From an uncultured archaeon (GTDB taxonomy: Archaea; Altiarchaeota; Altiarchaeia; JAFGQM01), in contig CAZUDQ010000005.1 in assembly GCA_964619365.1 (NCBI GenBank), forward strand, positions 1 through 62,720: a stretch of 62,720 nucleotides of DNA. Direction: 5' to 3'. Shown piece after piece: positions 6,001-37,056 of this stretch. Under the pieces are notes generated by a model. That model saw only the letters and a program-made list of their open reading frames with translations. It searched no databases and was not told the DNA's origin. Position 1 is the first letter of the stretch; each line of letters starts with the position of its first letter. Made by a program: the position numbers and the translations under genes.

Positions 6001-9000
6001 GATTGTTTACCACCTCCACTCCGTCAAGGTAAAACCTTGCGATTTGGTTGGGTGCGTCCCAAGTGCCTACAATATGGTGCCAAACGTTTGCTTCGAAATT
6101 AATTGGGTACTGAAGGAGAGTCCCCATATCATGAGCGCCATAAGTTAATTGTCCCGATTGATATCTCATGTAATAACGGTGATACTGGGAGATAAAAACT
6201 TGCGTATAAGCTGGGTATGTGCCGTTTAGTTCACCTGCAGGGCGGAACCATAATGACATGCTGTTTGTACTCGCATTCATCATGTTTGTCGAGCGGAGGT
6301 AATTAGTCCCGTTAAATTCTATTGCGCCCCCAAACTTCCCACGCGCATTCCAGGCACCAGGCCCTATGTTTAGGACTTCGTGGCTGAAGTTGGCAAGGTT
6401 TTTAGTCATTAGACTGGGGTCATCAAAATTAAGGTTAAAGACTAAATCGCTGATTTCTGAATTAGAGTAATCCCTTGCTGGACAGGCGTCACCATGACCG
6501 CAGTCACAAGTCTGGTTTGCGTAATAAGTGCAAGTTGTTCCATTCCAGTTAAGTGTGGCATATGCTAGATTAGAACCGTTGATAGTAGCATTCAAATTCA
6601 AAAGAGATGCTCCAACTGTCGCACCATTATCTGGTGTGGGGAGAGTAAAGTTTATTTGAAAAGGTGGAAGGCCCTCTGTAACCTCGTAAGTCGTAAATCC
6701 AGTTACATTAAACCTGAACGTTCCTGTAGAATTATTATAACTTAGGACATTACACACAGGAGACTCGCACACTACAAAGGTTCCGTTATCATTGATGTCC
6801 TTCTGTATTATGGGAGTATAATTGAATGTTAAATTCCTTAAGGTTATATTTGAAGATTCGTTTAATCCCGGCAAATCTATTGAATCGACAAATGTATGGT
6901 TAAGGCTTATGTCTGCGTTAAGGCTTAAGTTTGCAAGTTCATACAATGTTTCCAGCCACGCAATCGTTCCGAATTCCTGCTCGATAGTAAGACGGGTGTT
7001 GTTATAGTTTAAGTTCGTGTCGGTAAATGAGTTATTGATTAAGACTAAGCTGTCTCCATCTCCTTTTATTATGGCATCAATACCTGGGTTTGTCCAAGTG
7101 AAATTTGATAAGTACGCCGTGTCACTTACTAAGATGTCTAATGGGTTGATTGCTCCGACTATGTTGTCTGCGTTTATCACTGAGAGATTTGAGAAGCTCC
7201 AGTCACTTGGGTTATTCGTGTTAAAGAAGGTCGTGTTAACACTTTCGTTGGCAATCCCTGTCGTGCCTTGGAACCTAAAGCCACCATAAATCTGGGCTGA
7301 GTTCTTGTTCTGGTCAACAAATATCAGGGTTCCTGTATCCCCTGGAGAAGCTGGATATGAACCACCTGCAACGCTTCCCTTAGTGACACTTGAGGATTGT
7401 GGACTTGTGAGTGTACTGGTGTTATAATAAACTGCGATTCTTCCGCCCGCGCCGCCACCTCCACCATAAAGGGTGGCAGAACCTCCGTTTCCGGCATCTG
7501 CTGAGAAATCTCCGCTACCGGCTAGCACATCTGTTATAACATAAATGGATCCGCCCGACCCAGCCCCACTTGCTCGACTAGTACTCCGACCATCTACGCC
7601 GTCTGCTGTAATACTACCGTCTAATGTCAATACATCTGTTATGTTAAGGGATATGGCCCCCCCTCCAGCGCCGCCAGGGTAATCAAATCCACCCCCACCA
7701 CCACTTCCAAGAATTGTTGGTGCTAATGATGAATCATAAACAACGCCCGCATAGCCTCCACCAGAATGACCTCCTTTGCCGCCAGCACCGCCATGGCCTG
7801 CCCCACCACCACTATAAGAACTGCCACCGCCTGCACCAGGTCCAGAACCGGCTGTTCTAGAAGCGCCGCCGGAATAACCTTTCCCGTCTGCTGAGATAGT
7901 GGAATCAGAATCAAGTACCAAATTAGTAGCTGTTATATTGGAATTTCCATAAAAATGTGAATTATTCAGGACAATGTCACTATCTAGTTGTATAGATATG
8001 GAATTAACTATTCTCTCAGAAGCACTCAAACTTGAATCTTTGACTGCCATAGCCCCCAGATTAAAATCAATTATGTCACTTGACCAACTGGAATTTGTTA
8101 AATTAAGATTATTTTCTACAGAAATACTCAAATTAGAAACTGCTTCGATTACATTGTCTGCATTCATAATCGTCAGGTTTGAGAAGTTCCAGTTGCTTGG
8201 GTCGTTCGTGTTAAAGAAGGTCGTGTTCACGCTTTCGTTGGCAATCCCGCTTGTTCCCTGGAACCTGAATCCCCCATAAATCTCTGCTGAGTTCTTGCTT
8301 TCGTCTACAAAGATTAGGGTTCCTGTGTTTCCTGGAGAAGCTGGATATGAACCACCTGCAACGCTTCCCTTAGTAACGCTTGATGATTGTGGGTTTGTGA
8401 GTGTACTACTGTTATAATAAACTGCGATTCTTCCACCCGCGCCGCCGCCTCCACCATAAAGGGTAGCAGAACCTCCATTTCCAGCATCTGCTGAGAAATC
8501 TCCGCCGCCAGTTAATACATCAGTTATAACATAAATGGATCCACCTGATCCACCCCCTGTTGCTCGACTAGTACTCCGACCATCTACGCCATCTGCTGTA
8601 ATCTTACCATCTAATGTTAAGACATTAGTTATATCAAGGAATATCGCTCCGCCTCCGGCTCCTCCAGCGTAATCACACCCCCCGCCTCCGCCACTTCCAA
8701 GGGTTGTTGGTGCTAATGATGAACCATAAATTATACCTCCGACCCCTCCAGAAGAATGTCCTCCGTGACCACCACTTCCACCATGACCGCCGCCTCCCCC
8801 ACTATACATGCCGCCGCCGCCAGCACCGGGTCCAGAACCGGCTGTTCTAGAAGCGCCACCGGAATAACCTTTCCCGTCTGCTGAAATGCTTGCCCCAGTA
8901 TCTATAGTCAAGACATTTGCAGTCAAGGCAATGGAATTATTTCCTGCGGTAGCCGAGTCAAAAGTCAAAACGGCGTTATTTGTTATCGTGACAACATCAC

Positions 9001-11851
9001 AGGTTTGATTTTGCGTCCATGTGGTATCTGTTGTTATTGTTAAGTTGCCGCCCGTATCCAGACAGTTTGGATATGGTATATACTCTATTGTAACGTTCCA
9101 GTGTTCTGTTTCGTTGCTGATACTTGGGTCACTTGAAAGGTTTGCAAATGCGAAGAATTCGTAAGTTGAATTGATGTCCCCTGTTGCATTAACACTCCAA
9201 GTGACGTTTTGGCACTGGCTTGCGTTAAGGTTTATAGTTTGAGGATTATCTGAGGTTGTATAAAACGGTGTTGCTCCGATTGTTGTGTTTATTAATCCTG
9301 TTTTTCCTGTTGCTGTAACTGTTGGAACTGGTGAGGAACCAGCTTTAACAGTCCAGGTAGTACATAAATCTGGCGTATCTACTTCGGGCTGCCCATAATA
9401 CATAAGACCTGCAAGAGAAGCTGTATCTCTCCGAATCTCCCAGTCCCACGAACCAGTCCAGTGTATAAGATAACCACTATCGTCATGGAGATAAAGAGGT
9501 TTTCCATAATAGGTTCCACTTTCAGTATAATGTCCATTAGCTGCTGCTGTTCCAGCTCCCGCAACTGTTATTCCATATTCGGGTGTTGGGTCTAAGGAAA
9601 CATTGATTTCGCCGCAGTTTGCATCAAGACAACAGACTTCTGTTGTCACATTGAAGAACTCGTTTTGTGTTGCGTTAAGATCGCCTGTGGGTGTTACTAA
9701 AGATATATTCACCCTCGGATTTGAGGGACTTGATGATGAAAACCCTTGTAAGTCTGGATAATTTGTCCCGTTGTTTGAATCATTCCAGGTGCTTGTGAAG
9801 TCCCAGGACTCTTCGGGCGAGTTTGAATAATTAAAGAAATAAGATATCGAAGTCTCAGCAGTGCAGCTAACTGGGGTCCCGTCCTTTATACATACATCTG
9901 GGTTACTAGCAGAGTTTAGCCAATATGCACCAATAATCTGTGCGCCAGAATCTATATAACCTGCTACAGCTCCTTTGTGAATAGATGTACACGAGATATT
10001 TGAAACAGTAAAGATATCTTTCATAGCCCAGCCACCATTGTTGCCACTTACTCCGCCGGCAACCCCACCTATATAATAATAGCCCGAGTTGAGTACTATT
10101 TTCCCTATGTTGTATACATTAGTCAGTCTACTGTTAAGGAGACGCCCTACAATACCTCCAATATTGCCATCATCCCCAAGACCTGTAAGATTGCCCGTAA
10201 AATAAATGTTTTCGGCATAAGCTCCTTCTAAATGACCTATAACACCGCCGAGGTTTGCTCCGTCATACGAATTAATATCTGCGTTTTCTACAAATACCCG
10301 GTTAACTGCGCCGTTATCGATGCGTCCTGCAAGTGCTCCAGTATATCCCTGACCATTAACAAAGGGACTACTAAGACCTAGGTCATAAACACTAAATCCA
10401 GTACTGGCATATCCAAATAATCCCTGATAGTCTTCATCATAATCATCTATCGTTAAATTAATAATAGTATGCCCACTACCGTTTAACTCTCCAGTAAATT
10501 TCGTTGAACTGCTTCCAATCGGACTAAATCCATCGGCATCATTCCATCTTTTTGAATCATTACAGTCAATGTTGTTTTCTAATCTGTAATATGCATCCAA
10601 ATCATCTTCCATAGTTTGTAAGCCACTGCAATTAACGAGTAAATATGGATTTTCACTTGTACCATTACCACTCAAGGTTGGATTGCCTGGTGGCGTTAAT
10701 CCGGGTTGCCTTAAAGTTGTAAAAGAAGCACTGTGTTCTTCCCAGACATAATCGCGATCAAACCCGATTAGGGGAGAATTATTCATGTTATAAAAATAGC
10801 TTTGGTTGGTTTTAGCTGTGCAGCTAACTGGGGTCCCATCTTTTACACATACATCTGGATTACTGGCAGAATTTAACCAGTATGTACGAAGAATACGTGC
10901 ATCAGAATCTATATAACCCGCTACAGCTCCTTTGTGAATAGATGTACACGAGATATTTGAAACAGTAAAGACATTTTTCATAGCCCGACCACCATTATTG
11001 CCACTTACTCCGCCGGCAACCCCCCCTATATAGTAATAACCCCCGTTTAATGTTATTCTTCCTATATTATACGCATTAGTCAGTCCACTGTTAAGCAATC
11101 GCCCTACAATACCTCCAATATTGCCATCAGCCCCAAGACCAGTCAGATTACCTGTAAAATAAATGTTTTCGGCAGAACTACCTTCTAAATGACCGATAAA
11201 ACCGCCGATGTTGGCTCCACTGGGTGAATTGACATCACCGTTTTCTACAAATACTCTGTTAACGGCACCGTTATCAATGCGTCCTGCAAGTGCCCCAGTA
11301 TATGCTTTACCATTAACAAACGGGTTGATAATGCCTAGATCGTAAACACTAAATCCAGTACTGGCATATCCAAATAATCCCACATAATCCTCAGTTGAGC
11401 GGTTTATGTAAAGAGCCGCTATTGTGTAACCCGAACCATTAATTGTTCCTGTGAATTTATTACTGTTATCGCCAATAGGGTCCAATCCGATTCCTGTTGT
11501 ATAATACGCGTCACAAAACGAGAAGTCAATATCGTTTTGGAGTTCGTAATCCCATGAAAGCTGGGTTCGCGTTAAATTTAAGTCATCACATGAGCAGATT
11601 GGATGTGGGCTTGTTCCTGCGTCCCAGCAGTCTGTTACCGAGTCGCCCATGAGGCCTGAAACGGGTTCTGTTTCATTCCCGGTTTCGTTTGACTCTGGAG
11701 GTGTGACAAAGTACTCATAAAGCTCGTCGTCACCCACGGCGGCACCTGATAAAGAAAACACGGTTAGGACTACAATTAGGAATGCTAATAACGATAATAC
11801 TAAATAGGCTTTTTTCTGCCGAGTTCCAGATATGATTTGGGCTTCCCCCAT
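1..11851 (-). CDS. Giant secreted/surface adhesin-like protein (>3,950 aa, 3' end outside window) with GLUG repeats, two LamG-like domains, a DUF2341-like domain, Gly-rich modules and Ig-like domains
   Basis: ATG at 11851 gives MGEAQIISGTRQKKAYLVLSLLAFLIVVLTVFSLSGAA (basic then hydrophobic signal). The same frame reads ...GNANIT at the left edge. The ORF track lists no ORF in this frame, consistent with no stop before the edge. Motifs: GGLVG/GGLIG repeats, WHHIVGTWD..FNGSIDEVRVYN, DIRFVD..LPYWIE, many N-x-S/T sequons. Confidence 0.93.
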   Translation of the reverse strand, partial: MGEAQIISGTRQKKAYLVLSLLAFLIVVLTVFSLSGAAVGDDELYEYFVTPPESNETGNETEPVSGLMGDSVTDCWDAGTSPHPICSCDDLNLTRTQLSWDYELQNDIDFSFCDAYYTTGIGLDPIGDNSNKFTGTINGSGYTIAALYINRSTEDYVGLFGYASTGFSVYDLGIINPFVNGKAYTGALAGRIDNGAVNRVFVENGDVNSPSGANIGGFIGHLEGSSAENIYFTGNLTGLGADGNIGGIVGRLLNSGLTNAYNIGRITLNGGYYYIGGVAGGVSGNNGGRAMKNVFTVSNISCTSIHKGAVAGYIDSDARILRTYWLNSASNPDVCVKDGTPVSCTAKTNQSYFYNMNNSPLIGFDRDYVWEEHSASFTTLRQPGLTPPGNPTLSGNGTSENPYLLVNCSGLQTMEDDLDAYYRLENNIDCNDSKRWNDADGFSPIGSSSTKFTGELNGSGHTIINLTIDDYDEDYQGLFGYASTGFSVYDLGLSSPFVNGQGYTGALAGRIDNGAVNRVFVENADINSYDGANLGGVIGHLEGAYAENIYFTGNLTGLGDDGNIGGIVGRLLNSRLTNVYNIGKIVLNSGYYYIGGVAGGVSGNNGGWAMKDIFTVSNISCTSIHKGAVAGYIDSGAQIIGAYWLNSASNPDVCIKDGTPVSCTAETSISYFFNYSNSPEESWDFTSTWNDSNNGTNYPDLQGFSSSSPSNPRVNISLVTPTGDLNATQNEFFNVTTEVCCLDANCGEINVSLDPTPEYGITVAGAGTAAANGHYTESGTYYGKPLYLHDDSGYLIHWTGSWDWEIRRDTASLAGLMYYGQPEVDTPDLCTTWTVKAGSSPVPTVTATGKTGLINTTIGATPFYTTSDNPQTINLNASQCQNVTWSVNATGDINSTYEFFAFANLSSDPSISNETEHWNVTIEYIPYPNCLDTGGNLTITTDTTWTQNQTCDVVTITNNAVLTFDSATAGNNSIALTANVLTIDTGASISADGKGYSGGASRTAGSGPGAGGGGMYSGGGGGHGGSGGHGGHSSGGVGGIIYGSSLAPTTLGSGGGGGCDYAGGAGGGAIFLDITNVLTLDGKITADGVDGRSTSRATGGGSGGSIYVITDVLTGGGDFSADAGNGGSATLYGGGGGAGGRIAVYYNSSTLTNPQSSSVTKGSVAGGSYPASPGNTGTLIFVDESKNSAEIYGGFRFQGTSGIANESVNTTFFNTNDPSNWNFSNLTIMNADNVIEAVSNLSISVENNLNLTNSSWSSDIIDFNLGAMAVKDSSLSASERIVNSISIQLDSDIVLNNSHFYGNSNITATNLVLDSDSTISADGKGYSGGASRTAGSGPGAGGGSSYSGGGAGHGGAGGKGGHSGGGYAGVVYDSSLAPTILGSGGGGGFDYPGGAGGGAISLNITDVLTLDGSITADGVDGRSTSRASGAGSGGSIYVITDVLAGSGDFSADAGNGGSATLYGGGGGAGGRIAVYYNTSTLTSPQSSSVTKGSVAGGSYPASPGDTGTLIFVDQNKNSAQIYGGFRFQGTTGIANESVNTTFFNTNNPSDWSFSNLSVINADNIVGAINPLDILVSDTAYLSNFTWTNPGIDAIIKGDGDSLVLINNSFTDTNLNYNNTRLTIEQEFGTIAWLETLYELANLSLNADISLNHTFVDSIDLPGLNESSNITLRNLTFNYTPIIQKDINDNGTFVVCESPVCNVLSYNNSTGTFRFNVTGFTTYEVTEGLPPFQINFTLPTPDNGATVGASLLNLNATINGSNLAYATLNWNGTTCTYYANQTCDCGHGDACPARDYSNSEISDLVFNLNFDDPSLMTKNLANFSHEVLNIGPGAWNARGKFGGAIEFNGTNYLRSTNMMNASTNSMSLWFRPAGELNGTYPAYTQVFISQYHRYYMRYQSGQLTYGAHDMGTLLQYPINFEANVWHHIVGTWDAPNQIARFYLDGVEVVNNPSISSSPINFYGTNFGIGCSADTFGYRFNGSIDEVRVYNKVLSVDEIKDLYYGQLRNLSDTIWSFYEAKTNLSNGVYSYYLTAVDNFDASAQSETRNVTIAIPAFSIDFVNTSNKRVNQYENLNLTLNLTCILNNCSSVNVSLNYHSGAPLECDPANAVCTMDCDNIYEPGYKSWEGQWYYGSSGANKYCYGGESYVYNDAYCDEQGVAGINGPCSVTGFDVQYLCPSRERLGRTVYSFDCITYDPWGMGGGTFFSTVVNLSSPFFTYSSDLMNDSASATPFVINSSNPFVFSLGEGGETKIIPLHANVTGGVLETYSVFSEANLLADSSISNTSSVFNVTIVENKSPEIEFVPPTPDNDSAQTNTSVEINLSVIEEYLANITFDWNGTNYSLFDESLVLMYNFDNVAALGENLTHVVDMSGHGNDGTVEGATWNATAGVYGGAYEFNGINNRIVIPDNDNLGLVNSYSIFLWVKKARNPSTGTYASIISQSGGGDRRTYLIVSDDGSLYRWSGFDTGYTIDNDVWHSMVYTWDGSTERIYMDNNFTAQRTGSVPAWGSDIWTIGCSYNYNYFNGTIDEVRIYNRTLNPDEVLLLYRSNLKKCNETNWNFYANESNLSRGNYTYSATVFDTSGNSNSTGTRYLEIIGTFLNIIVNNFALEQNMTINQTNEVSVEVCCLEIDCGEINVSLDPASDCTDYGGDAGNGMCVNQDAGYYLIHNCTGLENIASVSYSASYRLLHDIDCSMTGDWHSGAGFDPIGAYSSGKFIGVFDGYNYTIDGLYINRPTEDHIALFAYAWSAAQFRNVGLTNVNITGDGYVAGLLGYGQAIVQNVYSTGNVTGTSDMVGGLVARSISSSSILEDCYSTAKVIGAIRVGGLLGSNEGSGGVLNSYATGNTSGDERVGGLVGSSSENIVNSHATGTVTGGSYVGGLVGKLSYDPIVSNCYATGAVTGENGVGGLVGNSNTDWLSPSAKSQILGSYATGRVTGGNNTGGLIGNGVNSRVNNSYARGQVSGVTAVAGLVGNNSHIIENSYSTGHVSGTNDIGGLVGINVGTCTESFWDTQSSAQSSSACGVGKTTAQMKSESTFTTAGWDFSTIWNISEELNDEYPYLLNNLPVPPSWVKGGLIPYGSGSPFYTTSANPQTIELNMSQCQNVTWQVVPNATAGSTYEFFAYADLLSDSSATVETRHWNVTILEAVTPPHIEFVLPTPPNDTNTTNTSVEINVTSNENLSDCVLSWTTGGTPYTDWWNDSFAHRQKINLSVASGSTEQDYQTNIILNSSNVGTNFNWSRNCNDIRFVDDSNTTQLPYWIENCSSSGENASIWAKVDDNITTATSYIYMYYGNDNATSESNENATFDFFGRPAIDRDNTDTGDLGRIANAKDEITFDGRVMGWRAYFGSSGSNFKIYVFPTIGTSQIQTSESFTVSTGYNAGTLATELPISTNQYFGWYQNGGRVKYGGGDTDETYLYDYYLGHWFSRAYSVNVKVRKYSSPEPTFTLESEESSHETTNYSMQIHNLDNNTWANYTVINLTDETNYIYYVRCNDTSGNANVTELRTLTVDAPCPNGMDGLGTANDPCIINTVADLSSARECLHCDYDLNASLDLSSASNWTPIGNCTGSCYDETNDFPFTGTFDGAGHTLSDLTIDREEDNQGLFGNLYSHNGSGNITNLSIENAEVIGATYVGALVGNAYGATISHITAEANATGVGNIGVLAGQAGGTTLSYIITSGDVSASNNAGGVAGDGADSEITHSSSSASVSATHYAGGIYAIGDRANITDVNSSTITETTSGGIDVESYSGGIVSYAVDVKITNCNTLGRMSGSGIIGGLAGYLQGGSVSSCYSQSELVSGGPDTGGLIGIAIGTTIEECESRAAVTGVDGTGGLIGNASGATITECISSANVSGGINVGGMVGEAQGTTIENSYALGNVLGANTLGGIVGRAENCELTNVYSAANVLGASAIGGIAGNASGTITDAYSAAFVFFTSSGAGILGGGNANIT
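7160..8885 (-). repeat. Intragenic duplication of the Gly-rich module (about 8150-8885 and 7160-7895, offset 990 bp)
   Basis: Near-identical DNA, e.g. ggaataacctttcccgtctgctga at 8861 and 7871, and ctggatatgaaccacctgcaacgcttccct at 8341 and 7351. Confidence 0.9.
9855..11385 (-). repeat. Intragenic duplication of the N-terminal GLUG-like module (about 10815-11385 and 9855-10425, offset 957 bp)
   Basis: Near-identical DNA, e.g. ctggcatatccaaataatcc at 11361 and 10404, and gtgcagctaactggggtccc at 10818 and 9861. Confidence 0.9.
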
Positions 11852-11873
11852 ACTACGGAATATAACACCCTAA

Positions 11874-11890
11874 AGTATTAAAATGTTTCA
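11874..11890 (-). promoter_or_regulatory. Putative BRE/TATA promoter of the giant gene (probably leaderless mRNA)
   Basis: Minus strand reads GAAACATTTTAATA, with TTTTAATA 25-32 nt upstream of the ATG, the typical archaeal leaderless spacing. Confidence 0.45.
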
Positions 11891-12153
11891 TATCAGAACT
11901 TTTTTATTTTAAGGATGGGATAGCCTTGTCCTAAAGGGAGATAAGAGGATATACTCGCATACCCGATTGTTGATACTGCAAGAGTTTTTTGTAGCATAAA
12001 CGATCTGTTTTATATTAGGGGAAGTATGGGGGGTCTTGGCTAATTCATACTATCAAAGTATAACTATATCTTAGTAAGCTTCTCATGACGGCTTTTTATT
12101 GGTCGTCGTGATTATTTAGTTGAAAATAAGCACTTGTGGCTTTTACTTGTAAA

Positions 12154-13167
12154 ATGGTTGTACGAATCGGTATAAACGGCTTTGGAAGGACGGGGAGACT
12201 TGCTATGCGCGCGGCCCTTGGGCGTAAAGATGTAGAAGTTGTGATGGTTAACACTAGGACTGCAGACCCAGAGCAAATGGCATACCTTCTAAAATATGAT
12301 TCTGTGCACGGAATTCTTCCTGACGAGGTAAAGGCTGGAGATGGCTGCTTTTATGTCGGCGGCAAAAAAGTCATTCTTAATGGAGAGGCTGGAGAGCTTT
12401 CAAATATACCCTGGGGTGAAAACAAGGTTGATGTTGTTATTGAATCCACTGGCAAATTTAAAACTGGTCCGACGACACGTGGCCACCTTGAGGGGGGGGC
12501 AAAAAAGGTGATAATTTCGGCGCCTGGGAAGGAACTTGATAATACTATTGTCCTTGGAGTCAATGAGGATACTTACACGCCTGAGCAAAATATTGTTTCA
12601 AACGCATCATGCACGACAAACTGCCTTGCTCCTGTTGCAAAAGTCTTAAACGACGCTTTTGGAATTGAAAAGGGCTTTGCAACAACGATACATTCCTATA
12701 CTGGCGACCAGAGACTTCTTGATGGCTCGCACAAAAAGGACCTTAGACGAGCGCGCTCCGCGGCAATGTCAATGATTCCGACGTCAACTGGGGCGGCTAA
12801 AGCAACATGCCTAGTCATCCCGGAACTTAAAGGTAAACTTGACGGGGTTGCAATACGCGTTCCAACGCCGGATGTATCTATTGTTGACTTGGCCGCAAAA
12901 TTAACTAAGGAAACAACGGCTGAAGAGATCAATGCGACATTTAAGAGAGTCTCTGAAGGGAAACTTGCAGGGATAATCGCTTATTCGAAGGAGCCACTAG
13001 TTTCAGTGGATTACGTTTCAACGCCATACTCTGCGATAATCGATTCACAGCTAACTAGCGTTACTGGTGGAGACCTTGCAAAGGTATTTGCATGGTATGA
13101 CAACGAGATGGGCTACTCGACAAGACTCGTTGACCTCGCAACGTTCATGGCCAAAAAAGGTCTTTAA
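12154..13167 (+). CDS. gap: Glyceraldehyde-3-phosphate dehydrogenase, class I (bacterial type)
   Basis: GINGFGRTGR Rossmann motif, catalytic ASCTTNCL, WYDNEMGYS. The ATG at 12154 is preferred to the upstream GTG. Confidence 0.97.
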   Translation: MVVRIGINGFGRTGRLAMRAALGRKDVEVVMVNTRTADPEQMAYLLKYDSVHGILPDEVKAGDGCFYVGGKKVILNGEAGELSNIPWGENKVDVVIESTGKFKTGPTTRGHLEGGAKKVIISAPGKELDNTIVLGVNEDTYTPEQNIVSNASCTTNCLAPVAKVLNDAFGIEKGFATTIHSYTGDQRLLDGSHKKDLRRARSAAMSMIPTSTGAAKATCLVIPELKGKLDGVAIRVPTPDVSIVDLAAKLTKETTAEEINATFKRVSEGKLAGIIAYSKEPLVSVDYVSTPYSAIIDSQLTSVTGGDLAKVFAWYDNEMGYSTRLVDLATFMAKKGL

Positions 13168-13943: not shown

Positions 13944-13964
13944 TAAGTTAATATATCACTAGAA

Positions 13965-14669
13965 ATGAGCCCGCCGGCAAGAAAACCCAGAGCTAAGCAA
14001 GCTAAAGTCTCGCCAACAAAGACAATTGAATCTGTGCAAAGACCGAACGTAGAGCATATGTGGCTAAAAACTCGAGGACGATTAGACCGTATTGACAAAC
14101 ATTCCAAACAGCATACAGTAGTAGAAGACATAGGTCAAAAGAAGGCTATACTAAGAGAATTGGGCTTGCGAAATTATGCCACATTACACACTCACATTAT
14201 AAATCCTGAGATGAACTTGGATAGGAATCTCTCTGTGCGTGCTATGGGATTTAAGAATATGGACCGGACGTTTACACCAAATCTCCCGTCTTCTTCGGAT
14301 TTTAGAGATCTTCTCCAGAATTTTGGTGAAAGAACAAGCATAATCGCACAGACTCACCCAGAAACAGGAGAGGCTGCAGGTTTTTACTTCCTTAGAAAAA
14401 CTAAAAAAAGCCCCAGAATTCCTATAATGAGTAGGGGTAGTAAATCATCTATGATAAGGAGCATTGGTTACGAGACTCATCCTCAGGTCCGAAAAGTAAC
14501 TTCAGCAACCCAGGAGTACAATAACCGTTTAGAAAGATACTGGGAAATGGGCGACGCAGAGCGTTTTAAAGTTTTTGGGGACACACTTGATTCCCTTAAA
14601 TTACAGTTTAAAGCAAAACCAAGAAAAGGTTATAAGCATGTTCCAGGCCTTGGATTTGTCAAGAAATAA
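13965..14669 (+). CDS. Basic hypothetical protein with JAB/MPN+-like motif (paralogue 1)
   Basis: E...HTH...PSSSD; clearly homologous to the next ORF. Confidence 0.65.
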   Translation: MSPPARKPRAKQAKVSPTKTIESVQRPNVEHMWLKTRGRLDRIDKHSKQHTVVEDIGQKKAILRELGLRNYATLHTHIINPEMNLDRNLSVRAMGFKNMDRTFTPNLPSSSDFRDLLQNFGERTSIIAQTHPETGEAAGFYFLRKTKKSPRIPIMSRGSKSSMIRSIGYETHPQVRKVTSATQEYNNRLERYWEMGDAERFKVFGDTLDSLKLQFKAKPRKGYKHVPGLGFVKK

Positions 14670-14671
14670 AG

Positions 14672-15334
14672 ATGAGCCCTGCTCCAAAAAGCCATAAACC
14701 TGTTAAACGCACGCCGACAAAGCGTATTGAAAGCGTAAAGGATCCACATCTTGAAAGTGTTCACCTAAAATTTTCAGGGGAGCTCTTTGGCGTTAGCGCA
14801 AAGAGGGGACGTAGTGGTGTTAATGTAAATAAAAAAAAAGTAGATAAACTTGTCAATCAGCGTAGGATAGGAAAATCCATTTGGGATGCGACAGGGTATT
14901 CGACAGTACATACACACCCTCTAAAAGAAAGGATTGTGGATGATTTAGGTACTAAAAGACAAAATCCCACGTTACCATCCTCAGAAGACATAAACGAGTT
15001 CATGAATGATTTTGGTAGTCGATCGATGATTATTGCCCAAACGCACCCTAAATCCGGAAAAGTCGCAGGCTACTATTTTCTTAGAAAAACCTATGCTAGG
15101 CCAAAAGTTGTTATGCCTGAACACCCAACTCGTAGTTATATTGATATCGGTTTGGATGATTACAGACAGATTGAGGCTAGAGGGGGCAACGCAAGTAACT
15201 TAGAAAGAGAAGAATCCTTAAGAAAAGTAGCTGATAATCTTGGAATTCACCTAAGGACTGTTGTCAATAAGAAAGCAGGAACCTCTTTTGTCTATAAACC
15301 CGGCCGAGGTTTTGTCAGGACAGAGAGCAAGTGA
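14672..15334 (+). CDS. Basic hypothetical protein with JAB/MPN+-like motif (paralogue 2)
   Basis: E...HTHP...PSSED; shares IIAQTHPxxGxxAGxYFLRKT and PGxGFV with the previous ORF. Confidence 0.65.
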   Translation: MSPAPKSHKPVKRTPTKRIESVKDPHLESVHLKFSGELFGVSAKRGRSGVNVNKKKVDKLVNQRRIGKSIWDATGYSTVHTHPLKERIVDDLGTKRQNPTLPSSEDINEFMNDFGSRSMIIAQTHPKSGKVAGYYFLRKTYARPKVVMPEHPTRSYIDIGLDDYRQIEARGGNASNLEREESLRKVADNLGIHLRTVVNKKAGTSFVYKPGRGFVRTESK

Positions 15335-15399
15335 CCATCGCCCACTAGACTAATCTCCTTTTTTATTAATCCCCTCAAATTAAGCCTGCTACTTGGGGA

Positions 15400-18225
15400 A
15401 TGAAAGACATTATTATACGCGGAGCGCGGGAACATAATTTAAAGAACATAGACGTTGCCCTACCTCGCGACAAGGTAATTGTCATAACAGGTCTTTCCGG
15501 CTCAGGGAAAAGCACACTTGCATTTGACACTCTGTATGCTGAGGGGCAAAGAAGGTATGTGGAGTCGCTTTCAGCTTACGCCCGTCAGTTCCTTGGCCTT
15601 ATGAAAAAACCGGATGTAGATTCCATTGAGGGTCTTTCCCCTGCTATTTCAATTGAGCAAAAAACGACTTCTAAAAACCCGAGGTCAACCGTTGGCACGG
15701 TAACTGAGATTTATGATTATTTAAGGCTTCTTTTTGCAAGGGTGGGTAAGGCGCATTGCCCCGAACATGGAGTTTTGATTGAAGCCAGAAGCCCCCACAA
15801 AATCGCAGAGGTAGTAGCTAAGGATTTTCCAGAGGGGTGTATTATTCTTGCCCCTCTTGTGCGCCAGAAAAAAGGGACTTATGAGAGGCTTGCCCTTGAC
15901 TTAAAGCATGACGGCTTTTCCAGAATGCGGGTCAATGAAGAGATTATACGTACAGATGCGACACTTAATCTTGAACGCTACAAGAAACATGACATTGAAG
16001 TTGTTATTGACAGGCTTGAACTGATGGATAATGAGCGGCTTTCTGAAGCTGTCGAGCGCGCGGCAAAACTGGGGGAAGAGGGCCTCGTGCTTGTAGTGGA
16101 TAAAGAAAACGACCCAAAAAGCCTGATTAAGTATTCAACAAAGATGGCATGTCCTGTTTGCGGCATGTCCTTTGAAGAGCTTCAGCCCAGAATGTTTTCT
16201 TTTAACAGTCCCTTTGGCGCCTGCCCAGAGTGCCGCGGACTTGGGATAAAGATGGAATTGGATCCTGAGCTGATAATCCCTGATAAGAACCTTTCAATCG
16301 CAGAAGGTGCAATCAAGATTTACAGAAACGCAGTTGACGGCTGGCGTGGAACGCGGCTAGGCTCTCTTGCAAAACAATTTGGTTTTGATGCGCTGACTCC
16401 GATAAAAGATTTAAGTCCGGAGCAATATGATGTCGTAATGTATGGCAGCAACAAGGAGTTTACGGTTGACATGAAGTCAAAAAACGGCAAGAACCATTAT
16501 GTCTGGACAACCGAGTGGGAAGGTCTTATACCAGAATGTGAACGTTTATATAATCAAACCGAGTCTGACTACCGTCGCCATGAATCCGAGAAATTTATGA
16601 GGACTTCAGTCTGCCCAAAATGCAAAGGCAAAAGGCTAAAGGAGAAGGTTCTTGGAGTAACAATCGGGGACAAATCAATAATCGATGTAACAGACCTTTC
16701 GATAAAAGACTCGATAAAGTTCTTTGAAGAACTAAAGCTTTCTGAAAAGGACATCGGAATCGCAAAGCAGGTCTTAAAGGAAATCAAAGCCAGACTAATG
16801 TTTCTTGATGAAGTCGGTCTTTCGTATCTTAATCTTTCGCGCGCGGCAGGAACTCTATCTGGCGGTGAGGCACAAAGAATACGTCTTGCAACCCAGATTG
16901 GTGCAAACCTCATGGGCGTCTTGTATGTTCTTGACGAACCGTCAATTGGTCTTCACCAGCGCGACAATGAAAAGCTTATTGACACACTCCACCGCTTAAG
17001 AGACCTTGGAAACACACTTGTTGTTGTAGAACACGACGAAGACACAATAAGGCGCGCAGATTATGTAATTGATATGGGTCCTGGGGCAGGCATACACGGC
17101 GGAGATATTATCGCAAAAGGGACGCCCGAGCAGATTATGATGCATCCAGACTCCCTTACTGGAAAATACCTCTCCGGAGAACTTGAAATAAAGACGCCAA
17201 GTGAACGCAGGAGCGGACAGGGCAAGATAACAGTTAAAGGTTGCCGTGAAAACAATCTAAAAGGAATTGATGTCACAATACCAATAGGAACGCTAACTCT
17301 TATTACAGGGGTTTCAGGCTCTGGCAAATCATCTTTTGTATATGAAACGCTTTATCGAGTGATGATGCGGGAACTTCATACAAGCAGGGAAAAACCAGGT
17401 GCGCATGACAGCTTAGAAATAGAAGGCGAAATTGATAAGGTAATCGTAATAGACCAAAGCCCGATTGGAAAAACCCCGAGGAGCAACCCGGCAACATACA
17501 CCAAATTATTCGACGAGATAAGAAAGGTCTTTGCGGCAACAAAAGAGGCAAGAGTGCGAGGGTATAAACCTGGACGTTTCTCATTTAACGTTAAGGGCGG
17601 GCGCTGCGAAGCATGCTCTGGGGATGGTCTAATCAAAATAGAGATGAACTTCCTTCCTGATGTCTATGTGGAATGCGAAGAATGCAAGGGCAAAAGATAT
17701 AACAACGAGACTTTGGAAGTCAAATACAAAGGAAAAAACATCGCTGAAGTCCTTGACATGAGTGTTGAGGAAGCCCTTGAACTTTTTGATAATTATCCTC
17801 CGATAAAACGCAAGCTTGAACTCCTAAAGAAAGTTGGACTTGAATACATCAAACTCGGACAAAGCTCAACAACCCTTTCAGGCGGTGAGGCCCAAAGGAT
17901 AAAACTTACTCGCGAACTCTCAAAGAAAGGCACTGGAAGCACGCTCTACTTACTTGACGAACCGACAACAGGCCTTCATTTCCATGACGCAAAAAAACTG
18001 ATAAAAGTCCTTAATAGACTTGTAGACAAAGGAAACACCGTTGTTGTGATTGAACATAATCTTGACGTCATAAAAAGCGCCGACCACATCATTGACCTTG
18101 GTCCAGAAGGCGGTGATGGAGGTGGAGAGATAGTCGCGCAAGGTACTCCCGAACAAGTTGCAAAAAACAATAAAAGTTACACAGGGCACTTCCTTAGAAA
18201 ATCACTAAAACAAAAAAATAAATGA
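15400..18225 (+). CDS. uvrA: Excinuclease ABC subunit A
   Basis: [18 protein letters not shown], two LSGGEAQRI signatures, Zn fingers, GVSGSGKS. Confidence 0.98.
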
Positions 18226-19793
18226 ATCTTCCAAAGCTTCCAAAAGACCCGGGTTGTTACTTATATCGAGATAAGGCGGGAAAGATAATCTATATCGGGA
18301 AAGCAAAAAATCTGAATAATCGTATACGGAGTTATTTCTCCGGGACACATGACCCTAAGACTAAGGAGCTCGTAAAGCATATTGAATCAGTCGACTTTAT
18401 AATAACCGATACTGAAGCTGAAGCCTTGATACTCGAATCGAATCTTGTCAAAAAACATCAGCCAAAATACAATATAGACTTAAAGGATGCAAAAGGATTT
18501 GCGTATATCAAAATAACTAATGAGGAATTCCCAAGACTCGTTATTGCTAGGGGAAAACCTACTAGCAAAAAAGGGGAAGGGCTCTTTGGACCTTTTACAA
18601 ATGCCGCCGCGCGCGACTTTGCACTTCATGCCCTAAGAAAAGCATTTGGCATAAGGACATGCTCGCGCATGCCAAAAAAACCGTGCCTGAAAAAGGACAT
18701 GGGTTTATGTTCTGCGCCTTGTGTGGGCAATATAAAACAGGGAGATTATATCACAGCTGTAAGGCAGGCCGAAGCCGTGCTCCTCGGAAAGAGTGAGGAA
18801 CTAAGCGAACAGCTCAGTGTTGAAATGATGCAGGCTTCAGAGAACAAGGATTTTGAGCGCGCGATACTCTTAAGGGAGCGCATATCCGCAATAAAGTCCC
18901 TTTCAGAGCGGCAGAAGATGGAGCGCCGGGGAAAACATAATGAAGACGTGATATTCTGGGAACTGCGCGAGGGTCTTTGTTACTTACTTTTGTTTAATGT
19001 AAGAAAGGGCATCCTTGAAGCAAAGCAGGAATTTGTATTTCCTGCAATCGGGGATTTTTTCGATTCGTTCTTATTCCAATTTTATTCTGATGCAAAAGAC
19101 ATGCCAAAAGAACTTATATTACAAAAATCCCCAGAGACAGACTTGGAAACTGTACTTAAGGGACTTAAAGGTTCTAAAGTCAGGATTACCGTACCAAAAA
19201 CTGGAGTAAAGAAAAAGCTTCTTGACTTAGCAAGGGCTAATCTTGAGGCAAGCTTTTTTTCAGGTGAATCAAGCATCGCAGAATTAAAGGATGCAATTGG
19301 TTTAAAGACTGTGCCTGAGGTTATAGAATGCTTTGACATCTCGCATTTGGGCGGGACTGAAACTGTTGCTTCAATGGTCTCTTTTCTCAAGGGCAAGCCC
19401 AATAAGGCAGCTTACAGGCGCTTTAAGATACGGGAAACAAAGGGTGTTGATGACTTTAAATCCATTTCTGAAGTCGTTAGTAGGCGTTACTCTCGCCTCT
19501 TAAAAGAAAACTCCAATATGCCTGATTTGATACTTATTGACGGCGGAAAGGGACAACTATCCTCGGCAGACTCTGCACTCAAAGAACTTAGCCTGGATAT
19601 ACCTTTGGCAAGTATTGCAAAACGTGAGGAAGAAATATTTATCAGGGGACAAAAAGAGCCCATAATCCTTCCCATGAAAAGCAAGGCACTACACCTCTTG
19701 CAAAGCATAAGGGATGAAGCGCACAGATTTGCGATAAACTACCAGAAAAAACGGCGCGATATGCAGATGAAAGAAGAGTTTTTAGAACTATGA
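18222..19793 (+). CDS. uvrC: Excinuclease ABC subunit C
   Basis: GIY-YIG N-terminus ([14 protein letters not shown]), [22 protein letters not shown]. The C-terminal HhH domain appears absent. Confidence 0.96.
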
Positions 19794-21745
19794 TTGAATC
19801 AAAATTTGAACTGGTAACAGATTATAAGCCTAAGGGCAGCCAGCCTGAAGCAATAAAAGCTCTTGTTAAGGGCATAAACGAAAAGGACAATTTTCAGACA
19901 CTTCTTGGCGTGACAGGTTCTGGAAAGACTTTTACTATTGCCAATGTCATTGCAAAAACGAACAAAACGACTCTTGTCCTTGCGCACAATAAGACCTTGG
20001 CCGCACAACTCTATTCAGAATTAAAGGAGCTTTTCCCAAATAACCGTGTTGAGTTCTTTGTCTCATATTATGACTATTACCAGCCGGAGTCCTATGTTCC
20101 TGCACGAGACCAGTATATAGAAAAGGATTCTTCTGTCAATCCCCGTCTTGAGATGATGCGCCACGCTGCAACTGCTTCTCTTCTTTCAAGAAAAGATACA
20201 ATTGTTGTAGCCTCAGTCTCTGCCATATACAGCGTGGGGGATCCAAAAGATTATCTTGGCATGAGTTTTGACCTTGAAGTCGGCAACGCGATTGGAAGGC
20301 GAAACTTGATTGAAAAATTGGTTTCAGTCCAGTATGAACGAAACGAGATGGATCTTGCACCTGGAAGATTCAGAGCTAAAGGCGACACGATAGAATTCAT
20401 CCCAGGCTACTCCCAAAACCCGATTAGAATAGAGCTTTTTGGGGATGAGATAGAACGCATCGCAGAGCTTGATAAGATAACTGGGGATGTTATAGAGGAA
20501 TTTAAGTACTTTCATGTGTTTGCCGCAAAGCACTTTGTCGTGCCTGAGGAAAAGCTAAAGCGCTCAATGTCGGCAATCAGAAAGGAACTTGAACAAAGGC
20601 TTCCCGAGCTTTCCCCTCTTGAAGCACACAGACTAAAACAAAGAACAGAATTTGACCTTGAGATGATTGAGGAGATTGGATTTTGCAAGGGCATAGAAAA
20701 CTATTCTATGCATCTTGAAGGGCGAAACCCCAGTCAAAAACCATACTGCCTTCTTGACTACTTCCCTAAGGATTTTCTTCTCGTGGTTGATGAAAGCCAC
20801 CAGACAATCCCGCAAATCCATGGCATGTATAAAGGCGACCGCAGTCGAAAAAGCACTCTTGTGGACTATGGTTTCCGTTTGCCCTCTGCTCTTGCTAATC
20901 GTCCTTTAAAGTTTGAGGAGTTTGAAAAATATGCAAAGAACACAACAACAATCTTTGTTTCGGCGACTCCTGGGAAATACGAGCGTGAAATTAGTAAAAA
21001 TATTGTCGAACAAATAATCCGTCCGACAGGCCTTCTTGATCCTGTTGTTGTGGTGCGCCCGGCAGAAAAAAGGATGGCTGACCTTAAGTGCGAGCTTGAT
21101 TCTGTGATTAAGCGGGGAGATAGAGCGCTTGTTACAACTATTACAAAACGTCTGGCCGAAGAATTAAGCGAGTACTTGGCTGAAAAAGGAATCAAAACAA
21201 GATATCTTCACTCTGAAATCGAAACACTGGAGCGCAGCGAGATAATAAGGGAACTTCGCCTTGGGCGCTTTGACGTTCTTGTCGGGATAAATCTTCTAAG
21301 GGAGGGCCTTGATATTCCTGAGGTTGGCTTCATCGGGATTCTTGATGCGGATAAAGAAGGTTTCCTGCGCGATGAAAAAAGCCTTATACAGATAATCGGG
21401 CGGGCAGCACGAAACGCCAATTCAAAAGTCGTCCTGTATGCTGACAGGTACACAGATTCTATGAAGGCTGCCCTCCTTGAGACAAAACGGCGCAGGAGAC
21501 TTCAGAAAAAGTTCAACAAGGAACACGGCATCACGCCCACAACAATAGTAAAACCAGTTAAGGAAAAAGTGGTGGAGATAAAAGATATCAAACATATACC
21601 TAAGGCTGAGGCCGCAAATACTATAATCGAACTTGAGATGCAAATGCAGACTGCAGCAGAAAATCTTGAATTTGAGCGGGCAATAGAGCTTCGTGACCGC
21701 GCGCGCGCACTAAAAGAAAGGATTGGATACTCAGACGGAGATTAG
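19790..21745 (+). CDS. uvrB: Excinuclease ABC subunit B
   Basis: GVTGSGKT, SYYDYYQPE, VDESH, GINLLREGLD, C-terminal UVR domain. Confidence 0.98.
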   Translation: MIESKFELVTDYKPKGSQPEAIKALVKGINEKDNFQTLLGVTGSGKTFTIANVIAKTNKTTLVLAHNKTLAAQLYSELKELFPNNRVEFFVSYYDYYQPESYVPARDQYIEKDSSVNPRLEMMRHAATASLLSRKDTIVVASVSAIYSVGDPKDYLGMSFDLEVGNAIGRRNLIEKLVSVQYERNEMDLAPGRFRAKGDTIEFIPGYSQNPIRIELFGDEIERIAELDKITGDVIEEFKYFHVFAAKHFVVPEEKLKRSMSAIRKELEQRLPELSPLEAHRLKQRTEFDLEMIEEIGFCKGIENYSMHLEGRNPSQKPYCLLDYFPKDFLLVVDESHQTIPQIHGMYKGDRSRKSTLVDYGFRLPSALANRPLKFEEFEKYAKNTTTIFVSATPGKYEREISKNIVEQIIRPTGLLDPVVVVRPAEKRMADLKCELDSVIKRGDRALVTTITKRLAEELSEYLAEKGIKTRYLHSEIETLERSEIIRELRLGRFDVLVGINLLREGLDIPEVGFIGILDADKEGFLRDEKSLIQIIGRAARNANSKVVLYADRYTDSMKAALLETKRRRRLQKKFNKEHGITPTTIVKPVKEKVVEIKDIKHIPKAEAANTIIELEMQMQTAAENLEFERAIELRDRARALKERIGYSDGD

Positions 21746-21765
21746 GGCACGTATGAACCCTCAGT

Positions 21766-22395
21766 ATGACCCAACTACCCAATACGCATAATTATTACAA
21801 AATGAAAGAAGAGAATATTGAAAGTAACGAGTATCATTTATGTAAAAATGAATCTGGATTCATTTCGTTGACCGTAGATAGTTGGAAAAAAATGCGAGAA
21901 AAAATATCAACTGAAGGAGATTATGCATTGGTTGGGATATCAAACATTAGGGAGTTAGAATCCCTTGATATCGAGTTTAACCACATATCAAATTTAGAGC
22001 CTTTACAAAAATTGAAAAAATTAAAGGAATTAATCATTCGGTATACTGAGATAAGCGACTTTTCCCCACTTTCTTCTTTACCCTCCCTAGAAATTCTAAA
22101 TCTAGAAGGAACAGCAATCAAAGATTTAAGACCTCTCTCAAGATTAAAAAACCTAAAATATCTTGATCTCTCTGAAACAAAAGTTTCTGATCTATCTCCT
22201 TTATCTAGTTTAGAGAATCTTGAAGATATCATACTTTTTGATTGTTGGGAAAGTGGATTGGATATTTCCCCTCTAAAGAAGCTTAAAAAACTGAAGAAGT
22301 TATACATCTGGCCCAATAAATCTAGAGAGCATCAAATTGAAGAATTAAATAAAAGATCGCCTAACTTAGAAATCTTACCCCCACTAAAAAATTAA
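21766..22395 (+). CDS. Leucine-rich repeat protein (internalin/SDS22-like 22-aa repeats)
   Basis: About 5 repeats of LxxLxxLxxLxLxxxxIxDLxPL; AT-rich gene. Confidence 0.85.
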   Translation: MTQLPNTHNYYKMKEENIESNEYHLCKNESGFISLTVDSWKKMREKISTEGDYALVGISNIRELESLDIEFNHISNLEPLQKLKKLKELIIRYTEISDFSPLSSLPSLEILNLEGTAIKDLRPLSRLKNLKYLDLSETKVSDLSPLSSLENLEDIILFDCWESGLDISPLKKLKKLKKLYIWPNKSREHQIEELNKRSPNLEILPPLKN

Positions 22396-22402
22396 ATTCC
22401 TG

Positions 22403-22537
22403 ATGAAACAAAACAACCTCTTTTGGATCTCCGTAGTCATTATCGCCATCCCCCTAGTCTCTTTTGCCGCAGCTGAAGAAGCTAAAGAATCTGGACAAGA
22501 AGAAACAGGCGAGCTTAAGGAAACATCTGAGTATTAA
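22403..22537 (+). CDS. Small 44-aa ORF with signal-peptide-like N-terminus and acidic tail
   Basis: Manual translation MKQNNLFWISVVIIAIPLVSFAAAEEAKESGQEETGELKETSEY*; starts 7 nt after the LRR stop; below the ORF-track cutoff. Confidence 0.45.
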   Translation: MKQNNLFWISVVIIAIPLVSFAAAEEAKESGQEETGELKETSEY

Positions 22538-22764
22538 GGCCAAAGCTTTTAACACTCGCATATGCGAGTCTTGCTTTCTTAGAAATACTTGATCTTTTTG
22601 CTTTTTAGGCTTGCCATACAAAATATCTCTACGTGATGAAAGCATTATTACCCAGTCACTGAGATTTTTTCTGTGATGAGACGGGTAGCTACTGATTTTC
22701 AAAGCATTTGAAAAGTCGGACAACACTCATTACTAAAATACTAACAATCATTTTTGTGGGAACT

Positions 22765-31569: not shown

Positions 31570-32016
31570 GTGATTTATAATAAAAACGGCCAGGCGGCAA
31601 TAGAACTTCTTATTATGCTTTCAGTAGGGCTTGTAGTACTCACAGCAGTCTTTATTATGGGCGAGGACAGACTCTCTTGGGCTGAAGATACAGTTTCAGA
31701 AAGCAAGGTCAAAATAAGTCTTGGTAAGCTTGCAAACGCCGCTGATTTTGTGTATTCGCAATCTGTTGGGGCTGCAAGTGAAATAAATCTCGCACTTACA
31801 GGAGACGTAAAGGAAGTCGTTATTGGGGATGCGAGCGATTATACTATGTTTCGAAGTAATCACACAATAACGATTATTAGAGAAGTTGGTGGTGAGATTT
31901 ATGATAATTGGATTGCAACAGCCCCACTCCTTAAAGGCTCGATAAATGCAACGCGCGGCAGTCCGCAGGTAAGGCTGACAAATATGGGGGATTTTGTTCA
32001 AATTGAGCTCGTATAA
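31570..32016 (+). CDS. Type IV pilin-like protein (class III signal peptide)
   Basis: KNG^QAAIELL followed by a hydrophobic helix. Confidence 0.8.
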   Translation: MIYNKNGQAAIELLIMLSVGLVVLTAVFIMGEDRLSWAEDTVSESKVKISLGKLANAADFVYSQSVGAASEINLALTGDVKEVVIGDASDYTMFRSNHTITIIREVGGEIYDNWIATAPLLKGSINATRGSPQVRLTNMGDFVQIELV

Positions 32017-32955: not shown

Positions 32956-32975
32956 TTACAAATTTAGTAGAATAG

Positions 32976-34264: not shown

Positions 34265-34299
34265 ACATTTATTTACTATTACTATTCTATAGGGGTAAA

Positions 34300-36192: not shown

Positions 36193-36202
36193 ATCTTAAG
36201 AG

Positions 36203-37054: not shown

Positions 37055-37056
37055 AG

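Follow-up and report, generated by a model that had tools for sequence, protein, structure and literature searches.

Two tandem genes of an uncultured Altiarchaeota archaeon encode basic proteins with an intact active-site motif that belong to a rare archaeal subfamily of the JAB superfamily

Introduction

JAMM/MPN+ proteins represent the metalloprotease arm of ubiquitin-like signaling, and the spacing HxH-x7-S-x2-D is treated as their signature. Two adjacent genes on a 62,720 nt stretch of DNA of an uncultured archaeon of the Altiarchaeota (assembly GCA_964619365.1, contig CAZUDQ010000005.1; the whole stretch is called the window in the following) encode proteins, designated P0001 and P0002, that contain the residues of this signature in a different spacing. 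This raises the questions whether the two proteins belong to the JAB superfamily, and, if so, what they might act on. The original prediction, made from the DNA sequence, had described them as highly basic JAB/MPN+-like paralogs without ubiquitin-system neighbors, and had proposed a new JAB subfamily acting on nucleic acids or on ubiquitin-like (Ubl) conjugates of a host, a targeting or export function of the basic N-terminal tail, and, as a further option, a role in DNA repair.

Results and Discussion

The analysis supports the view that the pair belongs to a new subfamily of the JAB superfamily, which forms a rare archaeal clade with an intact active-site motif; the kind of system as such is not new. 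The two genes and the residues that are predicted to be catalytic are the following, with all coordinates referring to the window:

13965..14669, + strand, open reading frame (ORF) call: paralog A, P0001, 234 aa, divergent JAMM/MPN+ domain, soluble form
14052-14054, + strand: predicted catalytic E30 of P0001, invariant alignment column
14187-14189 and 14193-14195, + strand: predicted catalytic H75 and H77 of P0001, invariant alignment columns
14289-14291 and 14298-14300, + strand: predicted catalytic S109 and D112 of P0001, alignment columns
14672..15334, + strand, ORF call: paralog B, P0002, 220 aa, divergent JAMM/MPN+ domain, soluble form
14753-14755, + strand: predicted catalytic E28 of P0002, invariant alignment column
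14909-14911 and 14915-14917, + strand: predicted catalytic H80 and H82 of P0002, invariant alignment columns
14978-14980 and 14987-14989, + strand: predicted catalytic S103 and D106 of P0002, alignment columns

The ORF calls placed both genes where they had been predicted, and a BLASTP comparison verified that the products are paralogs (30% identity over 241 columns, E 4e-25). Only 2 nt separate the stop codon of P0001 from the start of P0002, and therefore the genes are probably co-transcribed. All sequence motifs that had been quoted could be found in both copies, i.e., MSP followed by a K/R/P-rich tail, (S/T)PTKxIESV, YxTxHTH, PxLPSSxD, FGxRxxIIAQTHPxxGxxAGxYFLRKT, and a terminal PGxGFV. 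Also the long and unequal spacer between HxH and Ser was confirmed, it comprises 31 residues in P0001 and 20 residues in P0002. The isoelectric points (pI) of 10.38 (P0001) and 10.16 (P0002), compared to a median of 7.6 among 22 neighboring proteins of the window, justify the designation "highly basic." The GC content of both genes is 0.41, near the genome value of 0.43, which argues that any transfer was not recent.

A family with invariant catalytic residues and a variable loop

P0002 was used as the query of an exhaustive phmmer search against 1.84 billion cluster representatives, which yielded 120 proteins at E<=1e-3, ten of them at E<=1e-10 and none at E<=1e-30; the best match had an E-value of 1.4e-17. 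None of the homologs whose source was shown had a functional name or a precomputed Pfam domain, and the few named ones are annotated as "hypothetical protein" of Candidatus Pacearchaeota. A word-indexed search with P0001 retrieved only the protein itself, while the same type of search with an alignment (A1) retrieved 17 proteins, none of which is functionally named. A search for longer, fused forms of the family remained without results, which is weak evidence. The family alignment of 123 members was built from 115 of the 120 phmmer matches, P0002, and seven proteins from the alignment-based word-indexed search; the fragments P0062 and P0109 as well as the long or fused proteins P0015, P0024, and P0097 were excluded.

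Glu28, His80, His82, and Asp106 (numbering of P0002) are present in all 123 aligned members. This invariance puts the similarity of the E/H/H/D residues far beyond chance, and it answers the question whether they are conserved in homologs. Ser103 is found in 115 of the 123 members and is replaced by Thr in four cases and by Tyr, Ala, Met, and Cys in one case each. Further highly conserved positions are Lys139 (121/123), Pro102 (118/123), and Glu20 (114/123), and the middle residue of the HxH motif is Thr in 102 members. The distance between the second His and Ser varies from 6 to 59 residues across the family, and ten members exhibit exactly the canonical seven residues. P0001 and P0002 do not have the canonical H-x-H-x7-S-x2-D spacing; its S-x2-D part is retained. 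The range of spacers indicates that the long and variable spacer of the pair reflects a hot-spot at which insertions occur throughout the family, while the E...HxH-x7-S-x2-D arrangement is canonical in all other respects. Hallmarks of the clade are an N-terminal SPxExIES motif, a normally fixed HxH-x7-S loop that is extended by a variable 0 to about 50 residues, the strand pair IAQ..TGKV.GY..LRKTK, and a strongly basic surface. The median pI of the family is 9.57, and values above 9 were calculated for 103 of 117 members.

Profile and structure evidence for the JAB assignment

Comparison of P0001 and P0002 with Pfam and NCBIfam did not reveal anything relevant, even at E<=10, and neither database contains a curated family model that covers the clade. 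Sub-threshold matches to Prok-JAB (PF14464) were obtained for nine of the 123 members at E<=1, the best of which (E 7.5e-4) scores 19.8 bits, below the cut-off of 25 bits. The prediction that the subfamily is new thus agrees with these searches. Among the ten members with a spacer of seven residues, the Prok-JAB match falls on the HxH..SxxD stretch in eight cases, and both spacer-7 members that were scanned also touch JAB models of PADLOC. The PADLOC scan of P0001 and P0002 gave no JAB match; a match of P0002 to Cas11a (E 7e-4, 18 bits) was taken as a chance similarity.

As a control, 23 canonical Prok-JAB proteins from genomes of the same class as the own genome were aligned. In the hhalign comparison of the two alignments, HTHP..PSxxDxxxF of the family was placed onto HSHP..PSxxDLxFF of the canonical proteins (Prob 63%, E 6.9e-5, 24 columns). 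With a domain-trimmed family profile the alignment extended over 96 columns (Prob 79%, E 1.5e-5), with the upstream Glu one residue off register relative to the Glu of the canonical P-x-E-F motif. A profile search of the sequences of the PDB did not retrieve any JAMM protein.

A structure prediction of P0002 with AlphaFold2 was unusable without an alignment (predicted local distance difference test, pLDDT, 36.5), and reached a pLDDT of 88.4 and a predicted template modeling score of 0.85 with the 123-row alignment. The latter model adopts the alpha/beta fold of MPN (Mov34/JAB) domains. A Foldseek comparison with the PDB gave no match at E<=1e-3; among the 49 matches listed, 44 are MPN-domain entries, as read from their titles, including CSN5, Rpn11, AMSH, JAMM1, BRCC36, Npl4, and BubCD. 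In the model H80 and H82 end the strand 76-83, S103 and D106 open the helix 104-112, and E28 is located just before the strand 30-34. These positions correspond to the arrangement in solved JAMM structures, which is an indirect indication that the four residues may be co-located around one zinc site. Therefore, the fold match, the invariant E/HxH/D residues with a near-invariant Ser, and the profile-profile alignment onto archaeal Prok-JAB agree on the assignment of the pair to JAB/MPN+ proteins. In a viral structure library the model had 18 matches at E<=1e-3 (the best with 2.6e-6 over 194 columns), and the best ones are better than those of the PDB. They comprise "minor capsid proteins" of phages, matched in their C-terminal parts, and proteins of giant viruses, a point that is taken up below.

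The tandem arrangement of two MPN-like proteins brings to mind complexes such as Rpn8-Rpn11 or CSN5-CSN6, and P0001 and P0002 might form an MPN-MPN heterodimer, in which one copy would mainly be a scaffold or regulator. MPN domains commonly pair. The genes are immediate neighbors, their 30% identity indicates that the duplication is old and that both copies have been retained, and Rpn8-Rpn11 entries are among the fold matches. However, all five catalytic positions are kept in both copies, unlike in MPN- scaffolds, and in five of the six family-carrying genomes of another archaeal class (see below) a single full-length copy is present among the matches listed, while the extra match in the sixth genome (G396) covers only the C-terminal module. 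Such a division of labor by analogy is thus regarded as very improbable.

Proposed function

The reading that we favor, and that we regard as fairly probable, is that P0001 and P0002 are soluble JAMM-type zinc hydrolases of a new archaeal clade, which are probably co-transcribed and act on something other than endogenous Ubl conjugates. In solved JAMM enzymes the two His of the HTH motif and the Asp of the SxxD motif hold one zinc ion, while the upstream Glu activates the zinc-bound water and the Ser stabilizes the tetrahedral intermediate. By analogy, the His pair and the Asp of P0001 and P0002 would also bind one zinc ion, the upstream Glu would activate a water molecule bound to it, and the Ser would stabilize the intermediate. 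The pair lacks the membrane hairpin of most relatives (see below) and would most likely act in the cytoplasm. The bond that is cleaved would probably be a peptide or isopeptide bond, and the target would be outside of any endogenous E1/Ubl system. The high positive charge, with pI values around 10 as in the family as a whole, suggests a polyanionic partner, and the target may thus be associated with a nucleic acid, the ribosome, or a membrane.

The statement that ubiquitin-system neighbors are missing held for the window, in which Pfam scans did not detect any ubiquitin-system gene, and could be extended to the genome of the archaeon. This genome comprises 1.2 Mb on 17 contigs and is 85% complete, and it contains no ThiS/MoaD, no ubiquitin, no eukaryote-type JAB, and no ThiF-type E1 above the cut-off. 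Neither ThiF nor ThiS scored above the cut-off in any of five other family-carrying genomes that were tested, all of which are incomplete. The lack of a detected E1 or Ubl in six carrier genomes argues against an endogenous SAMP-type cycle; as the genomes are incomplete, it does not prove the absence of these genes. The window also contains a TtuA/NcsA-type PP-loop gene (27301-28257).

These results bear directly on the view that the proteins are Ubl-specific isopeptidases or processing enzymes of the desampylase or deubiquitinase type, which would act on SAMP-, ThiS-, or ubiquitin-like conjugates of the archaeon itself or of a host. In addition to the undetected partner genes, a canonical Prok-JAB protein (40.2 bits) is already encoded separately in the own genome, and such proteins are present in 33 of the 41 genomes searched in its class. 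None of five homologous loci has a Ubl or E1 gene as a neighbor. An insertion in the HxH-x7-S loop is not known from Ubl-cleaving enzymes. Compared with the archaeal JAMM1 desampylases (Pyrococcus furiosus JAMM1, PDB 5ld9/5lda; Haloferax HvJAMM1) and Prok-JAB, all family members are sub-threshold, and the family is distinguished by the loop insertion, the N-terminal SPxExIES motif, a C-terminal beta-hairpin, in most cases a membrane hairpin, and the high pI. A desampylase-type function is therefore improbable. The proteins also differ from Cap3 of CBASS and from bacterial Ubl-deubiquitinases (BubCD; PDB 9ild, 8tyy, 9ea4): CD-NTase, E1/E2, and Bub genes were detected neither in the window nor at the five loci, and P0001 and P0002 do not match the JAB models of PADLOC.

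Membrane-anchored and fused relatives

A hydrophobic C-terminal module is present in 103 of the 123 family members. It consists of LE, a hydrophobic stretch, the conserved sequence S-S-N-[IL]-T-G-N-[AV]-I-G-N-L-x3-[TS]-S-N-x-I-G, a second hydrophobic stretch, and a K/R-rich end. The module can be read as a two-helix membrane hairpin, and under the positive-inside rule both the JAMM domain and the basic tip would be located on the cytoplasmic side. Most members of the clade would thus reside on the cytoplasmic face of the membrane. The module is absent in 20 members, including P0001, P0002, and their nearest relative P0003; six of the 20 are shorter than 200 aa and may be fragments. P0001, P0002, and P0003 end directly after a conserved GxGF[IVL]KK-like hairpin.

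A phylogenetic tree was calculated from 120 rows, i.e., 117 members of at least 200 aa and the domains of three fused forms. P0001 and P0002 group with P0003 with a support of 96 in the Shimodaira-Hasegawa-like approximate likelihood ratio test (SH-aLRT), and the branching order inside of this clade is not resolved. The tree requires at least three losses of the anchor on well-supported branches.

The same membrane module also occurs on many unrelated, cytoplasmic-looking N-terminal domains in genomes of the Pacearchaeota class (L048-L071, around G061; P0129-P0131). Its short loop holds NxT/S sequons and it ends with KKK, and it resembles a tail-anchor or sorting module that different proteins have in common.

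Three fused forms exist, and their sequences indicate that the catalytic residues are intact in the types represented by P0015, P0024, and P0097. P0024 has a helical N-terminal extension of 180 residues. P0015 and P0132 (378 and 383 aa, Candidatus Pacearchaeota) begin with a hydrophobic segment, which is followed by the C-terminal part of PT-HINT (PF07591, E 2e-11) and, at the extreme C-terminus, by the JAB-like domain. P0097 (1382 aa) has a signal-peptide-like start, a long N-terminal region, and the JAB-like domain at its extreme C-terminus, and it groups with P0015 in the tree (SH-aLRT 90). On a contig of the Pacearchaeota (L094) the P0132 gene (7001-8152) is located two genes upstream of a secreted-type gene of 1165 codons (8956-12453). 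The 1165-aa protein seems to terminate with half of a HINT domain, namely the N-terminal half, and the N-terminal part of P0097 is homologous to this carrier (E 4e-10). As judged from their domain architecture, two homolog clusters represent C-terminal cargo of secreted, HINT-associated carriers.

As an observation in its own right, the region 7001-12453 of this contig resembles an archaeal polymorphic-toxin locus with an exchangeable C-terminal cassette.

A toxin-like function of the pair?

The fused homologs suggest a second reading, in which the two soluble copies would be effectors or orphan toxin cassettes of a conflict system, with a Tox-JAB-like warhead, maybe a nuclease as has been proposed for Tox-JAB-1/2 and RadC, that is directed against competitors or against the host of this symbiont-like archaeon and delivered with the help of the N-terminal tail. 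P0015/P0132 and P0097 carry the domain with intact residues as extreme C-terminal cargo, and the apparent N-terminal half of a HINT domain is encoded near the P0132 gene; this is real evidence, although it comes from a minority of the family. The survey by Zhang et al. (2012; PMC3482391) describes two divergent clades of JAB toxins, Tox-JAB-1 and Tox-JAB-2, which are characterized by "E, H[ST]H, S, D," and suggests that they are nucleases rather than peptidases. It also names MuF capsid proteins as toxin carriers and reports Tox-JAB-2 in giant viruses, and it was exactly the C-termini of phage minor capsid proteins and giant-virus proteins that gave the viral-library matches (best 2.6e-6). In line with this description, the family is a divergent JAB group, has HTH in most members, and includes extreme C-terminal cargo of secreted carriers, in one case behind a HINT fragment; the P0002 model resembles proteins of the carriers and hosts that were named for such toxins. 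An Atlas feature search lists DUF4329 (0.86) and Toxin-JAB1 (0.85), which was taken as a lead only. The basic Pro-rich tail, which is shared with other proteins lacking a Pfam family (see below), would also fit.

However, matches to Tox-JAB-2 (DUF4329, PF14220) or Tox-JAB-1 (Toxin-JAB1, PF15659) were found in none of 17 proteins scanned at E<=10, i.e., P0001, P0002, and 15 further members. In contrast to these clades, the family is archaeal and not bacterial or viral, the 103 members with the module are stand-alone, membrane-anchored proteins, and the five loci examined are embedded among housekeeping genes, unlike conflict islands. The carrier architecture of Tox-JAB proteins is present in P0015/P0132 and P0097 and absent from the window copies, and no immunity gene has been identified. 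Neither a signal peptide nor HINT, RHS, or any other carrier is present in the window copies, and the next gene is uvrA instead of a small immunity-like gene; two intact toxins without a visible immunity gene would be self-harmful. Longer forms were also missing from the dedicated search mentioned above, for what little that is worth. We therefore consider a toxin function of the pair unlikely, albeit the most serious competitor of a cytoplasmic hydrolase. The literature on Tox-JAB-2/DUF4329 that was found consists of bacterial T6SS/Rhs work or of the 2012 survey only, and publications that join JAMM and DPANN did not contain such a family, as judged by title and the start of the abstract. A description of the clade was also not found in the literature searched, with subscription journals outside of the coverage.

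The basic Pro-rich N-terminal tail

A genome scan had been proposed for other proteins with a basic N-terminal tail, and it was indeed successful. The criterion was at least six K/R, at most two D/E, and at least three P within the first 22 residues, and it was applied to 1039 ATG-ORFs, a crude collection with a minimum length of 100 aa. Such a tail ("MPKPKP..", "MSPxPKK..") was found on 30 of the 1039 ORFs of the own genome. In control counts, internal windows of 22 residues gave 2, 0, and 1 hits, and the C-terminus gave 9. The 30 ORFs belong to many unrelated families, with only five pairs of paralogs, four of which are tandem pairs. A tendency to form clusters was seen on the contigs C1, C4, and C13. 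A Pfam family was absent in 19 of the 20 tailed proteins that were scanned. Examples in the own genome (G000), in addition to the window pair (13965-15334), are the following:

C1:189487-191104, strand not given: ORF with basic Pro-rich N-terminal tail
C4:69830-71223, strand not given: ORF with basic Pro-rich N-terminal tail
C13:15851-16722, strand not given: ORF with basic Pro-rich N-terminal tail

The tail might serve to sort or target the proteins, or it might bind nucleic acids. The idea of tailed symbiont effectors fared unevenly: the recurrence of the tail on 30 ORFs and the two clusters with secreted-carrier cargo, one of them behind a PT-HINT fragment, are in favor of it as a lead only, but the window copies themselves have no signal peptide, HINT domain, or immunity-like neighbor. 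In its boldest version, a symbiotic small-genome archaeon would use the pair as effectors against its host, i.e., as soluble versions of a DPANN-specific JAB enzyme that enter the partner cell and there strip Ubl-type conjugates or cut nucleic acid, the "MSPxPK / MPKPKP" tail would be a new translocation or sorting signal, and the secreted HINT-associated homologs would be a contact-dependent version. This is a speculation, to which we attach little probability.

Distribution and genomic neighborhood

The clade is rare, and it was found in small-genome (DPANN-type) archaea. A DPANN-like nature of the archaeon of the window is suggested by the size of its genome and by its relatives. Within the phylum of the window the family was found in one of 61 genomes, namely the own genome; a single weak match in another genome (G028, 73 residues, E 0.0067) was disregarded. 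Related loci for P0003 were not found among the genome contigs. In a class that holds a Pacearchaeota genome, six of 401 sampled genomes contain the full-length family, and 23 more match only the C-terminal membrane module. A conserved gene neighborhood was not detected among five full-length homologous loci. Their neighbors are a lactate-dehydrogenase-like trio; PolD DP2 and TctA; LysRS and a Dam methylase; ribonucleotide reductase, thioredoxin, and RpoB; and enolase and ribosomal protein S2, respectively.

In the window, a TatD-family gene is located 21 nt upstream of the pair and uvrA starts 65 nt downstream. The slot between TatD and DP2 (13944-22700) contains P0001, P0002, uvrA, uvrC, uvrB, and a leucine-rich repeat (LRR) protein. 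In a comparison with the loci L080 and L081, the same slot is empty in G006, which has the order GAPDH-TatD-DP2, and contains two genes in G002, which by eye only are phoU-like and phosphate transporter-like. Thus, the contents differ among relatives, and the pair resides in a variable slot.

This is of importance for the proposal that the position between TatD and uvrA allows a DNA-repair role, e.g., as a RadC-like accessory of the downstream UvrABC genes. The proximity to uvrA is unique to the own genome. UvrA is encoded in 31 of the 61 genomes of the phylum, and thus in 30 genomes without the pair; the gene for the closest UvrA (G002, 75% identical) has a divergent gene upstream and no such pair, and uvr genes are adjacent to the homolog at none of the five homologous loci. 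In addition, the following element is located between the stop codon of paralog B (15332-15334) and the start of uvrA (15400):

15359..15370, + strand: T6 run followed by ATTAAT, possible transcript end of the pair and/or TATA-like element for uvrA

The element would separate the pair from uvrA at the level of transcription. RadC (PF04002; Chlorobium RadC, PDB 2qlc) scores below the Ubl-cleaving JAMMs, a RadC Pfam match was not obtained, and the linkage of the family to repair genes is not conserved. Taken together, the DNA-repair role is disfavored and regarded as very improbable.

Several other features of the window may be mentioned. The LRR gene of the variable slot (21766-22395) has a GC content of 0.316, compared to 0.43 for the genome. 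The gene content marks the window as archaeal, as it includes PolD DP2, Cdc6, LonB, the editing domain of an archaeal ThrRS, and two kinases of the GHMP family (mevalonate-pathway type). A giant, open-ended ORF on the - strand (2-11851) has at least 3950 codons with matches to Laminin_G_3, GLUG, DUF2341, and Big_13, and probably encodes a surface protein. In the region 31994-38533, genes for a T2SSE-type ATPase (34300-36192) and for two membrane proteins of the T2SSF type (36203-38040) are flanked by ORFs without a Pfam family, four in front and one behind, and a gene for a KaiC-like ATPase is located on the opposite strand (30824-31513). The region probably represents an archaeal type IV filament locus.

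Implications

The clade keeps the catalytic residues of JAMM enzymes, yet tolerates from 0 to about 50 extra residues in the loop that serves as a signature. Its members usually appear to be membrane-tethered, they occur in genomes without a detected E1 or Ubl, and at least one recruitment as secreted, toxin-like cargo seems to have taken place. In practical terms, about 120 protein clusters that have so far had neither a functional name nor an annotated domain can now be annotated. Provided that the proteins are active, they would reveal the task of a JAMM enzyme in the absence of ubiquitin-like partners, which bears on the widespread "orphan" JAB proteins of prokaryotes and on the proposed nuclease-type JAB toxins. 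Active enzymes of this type might also give access to the cell biology of DPANN archaea, about which little is known.

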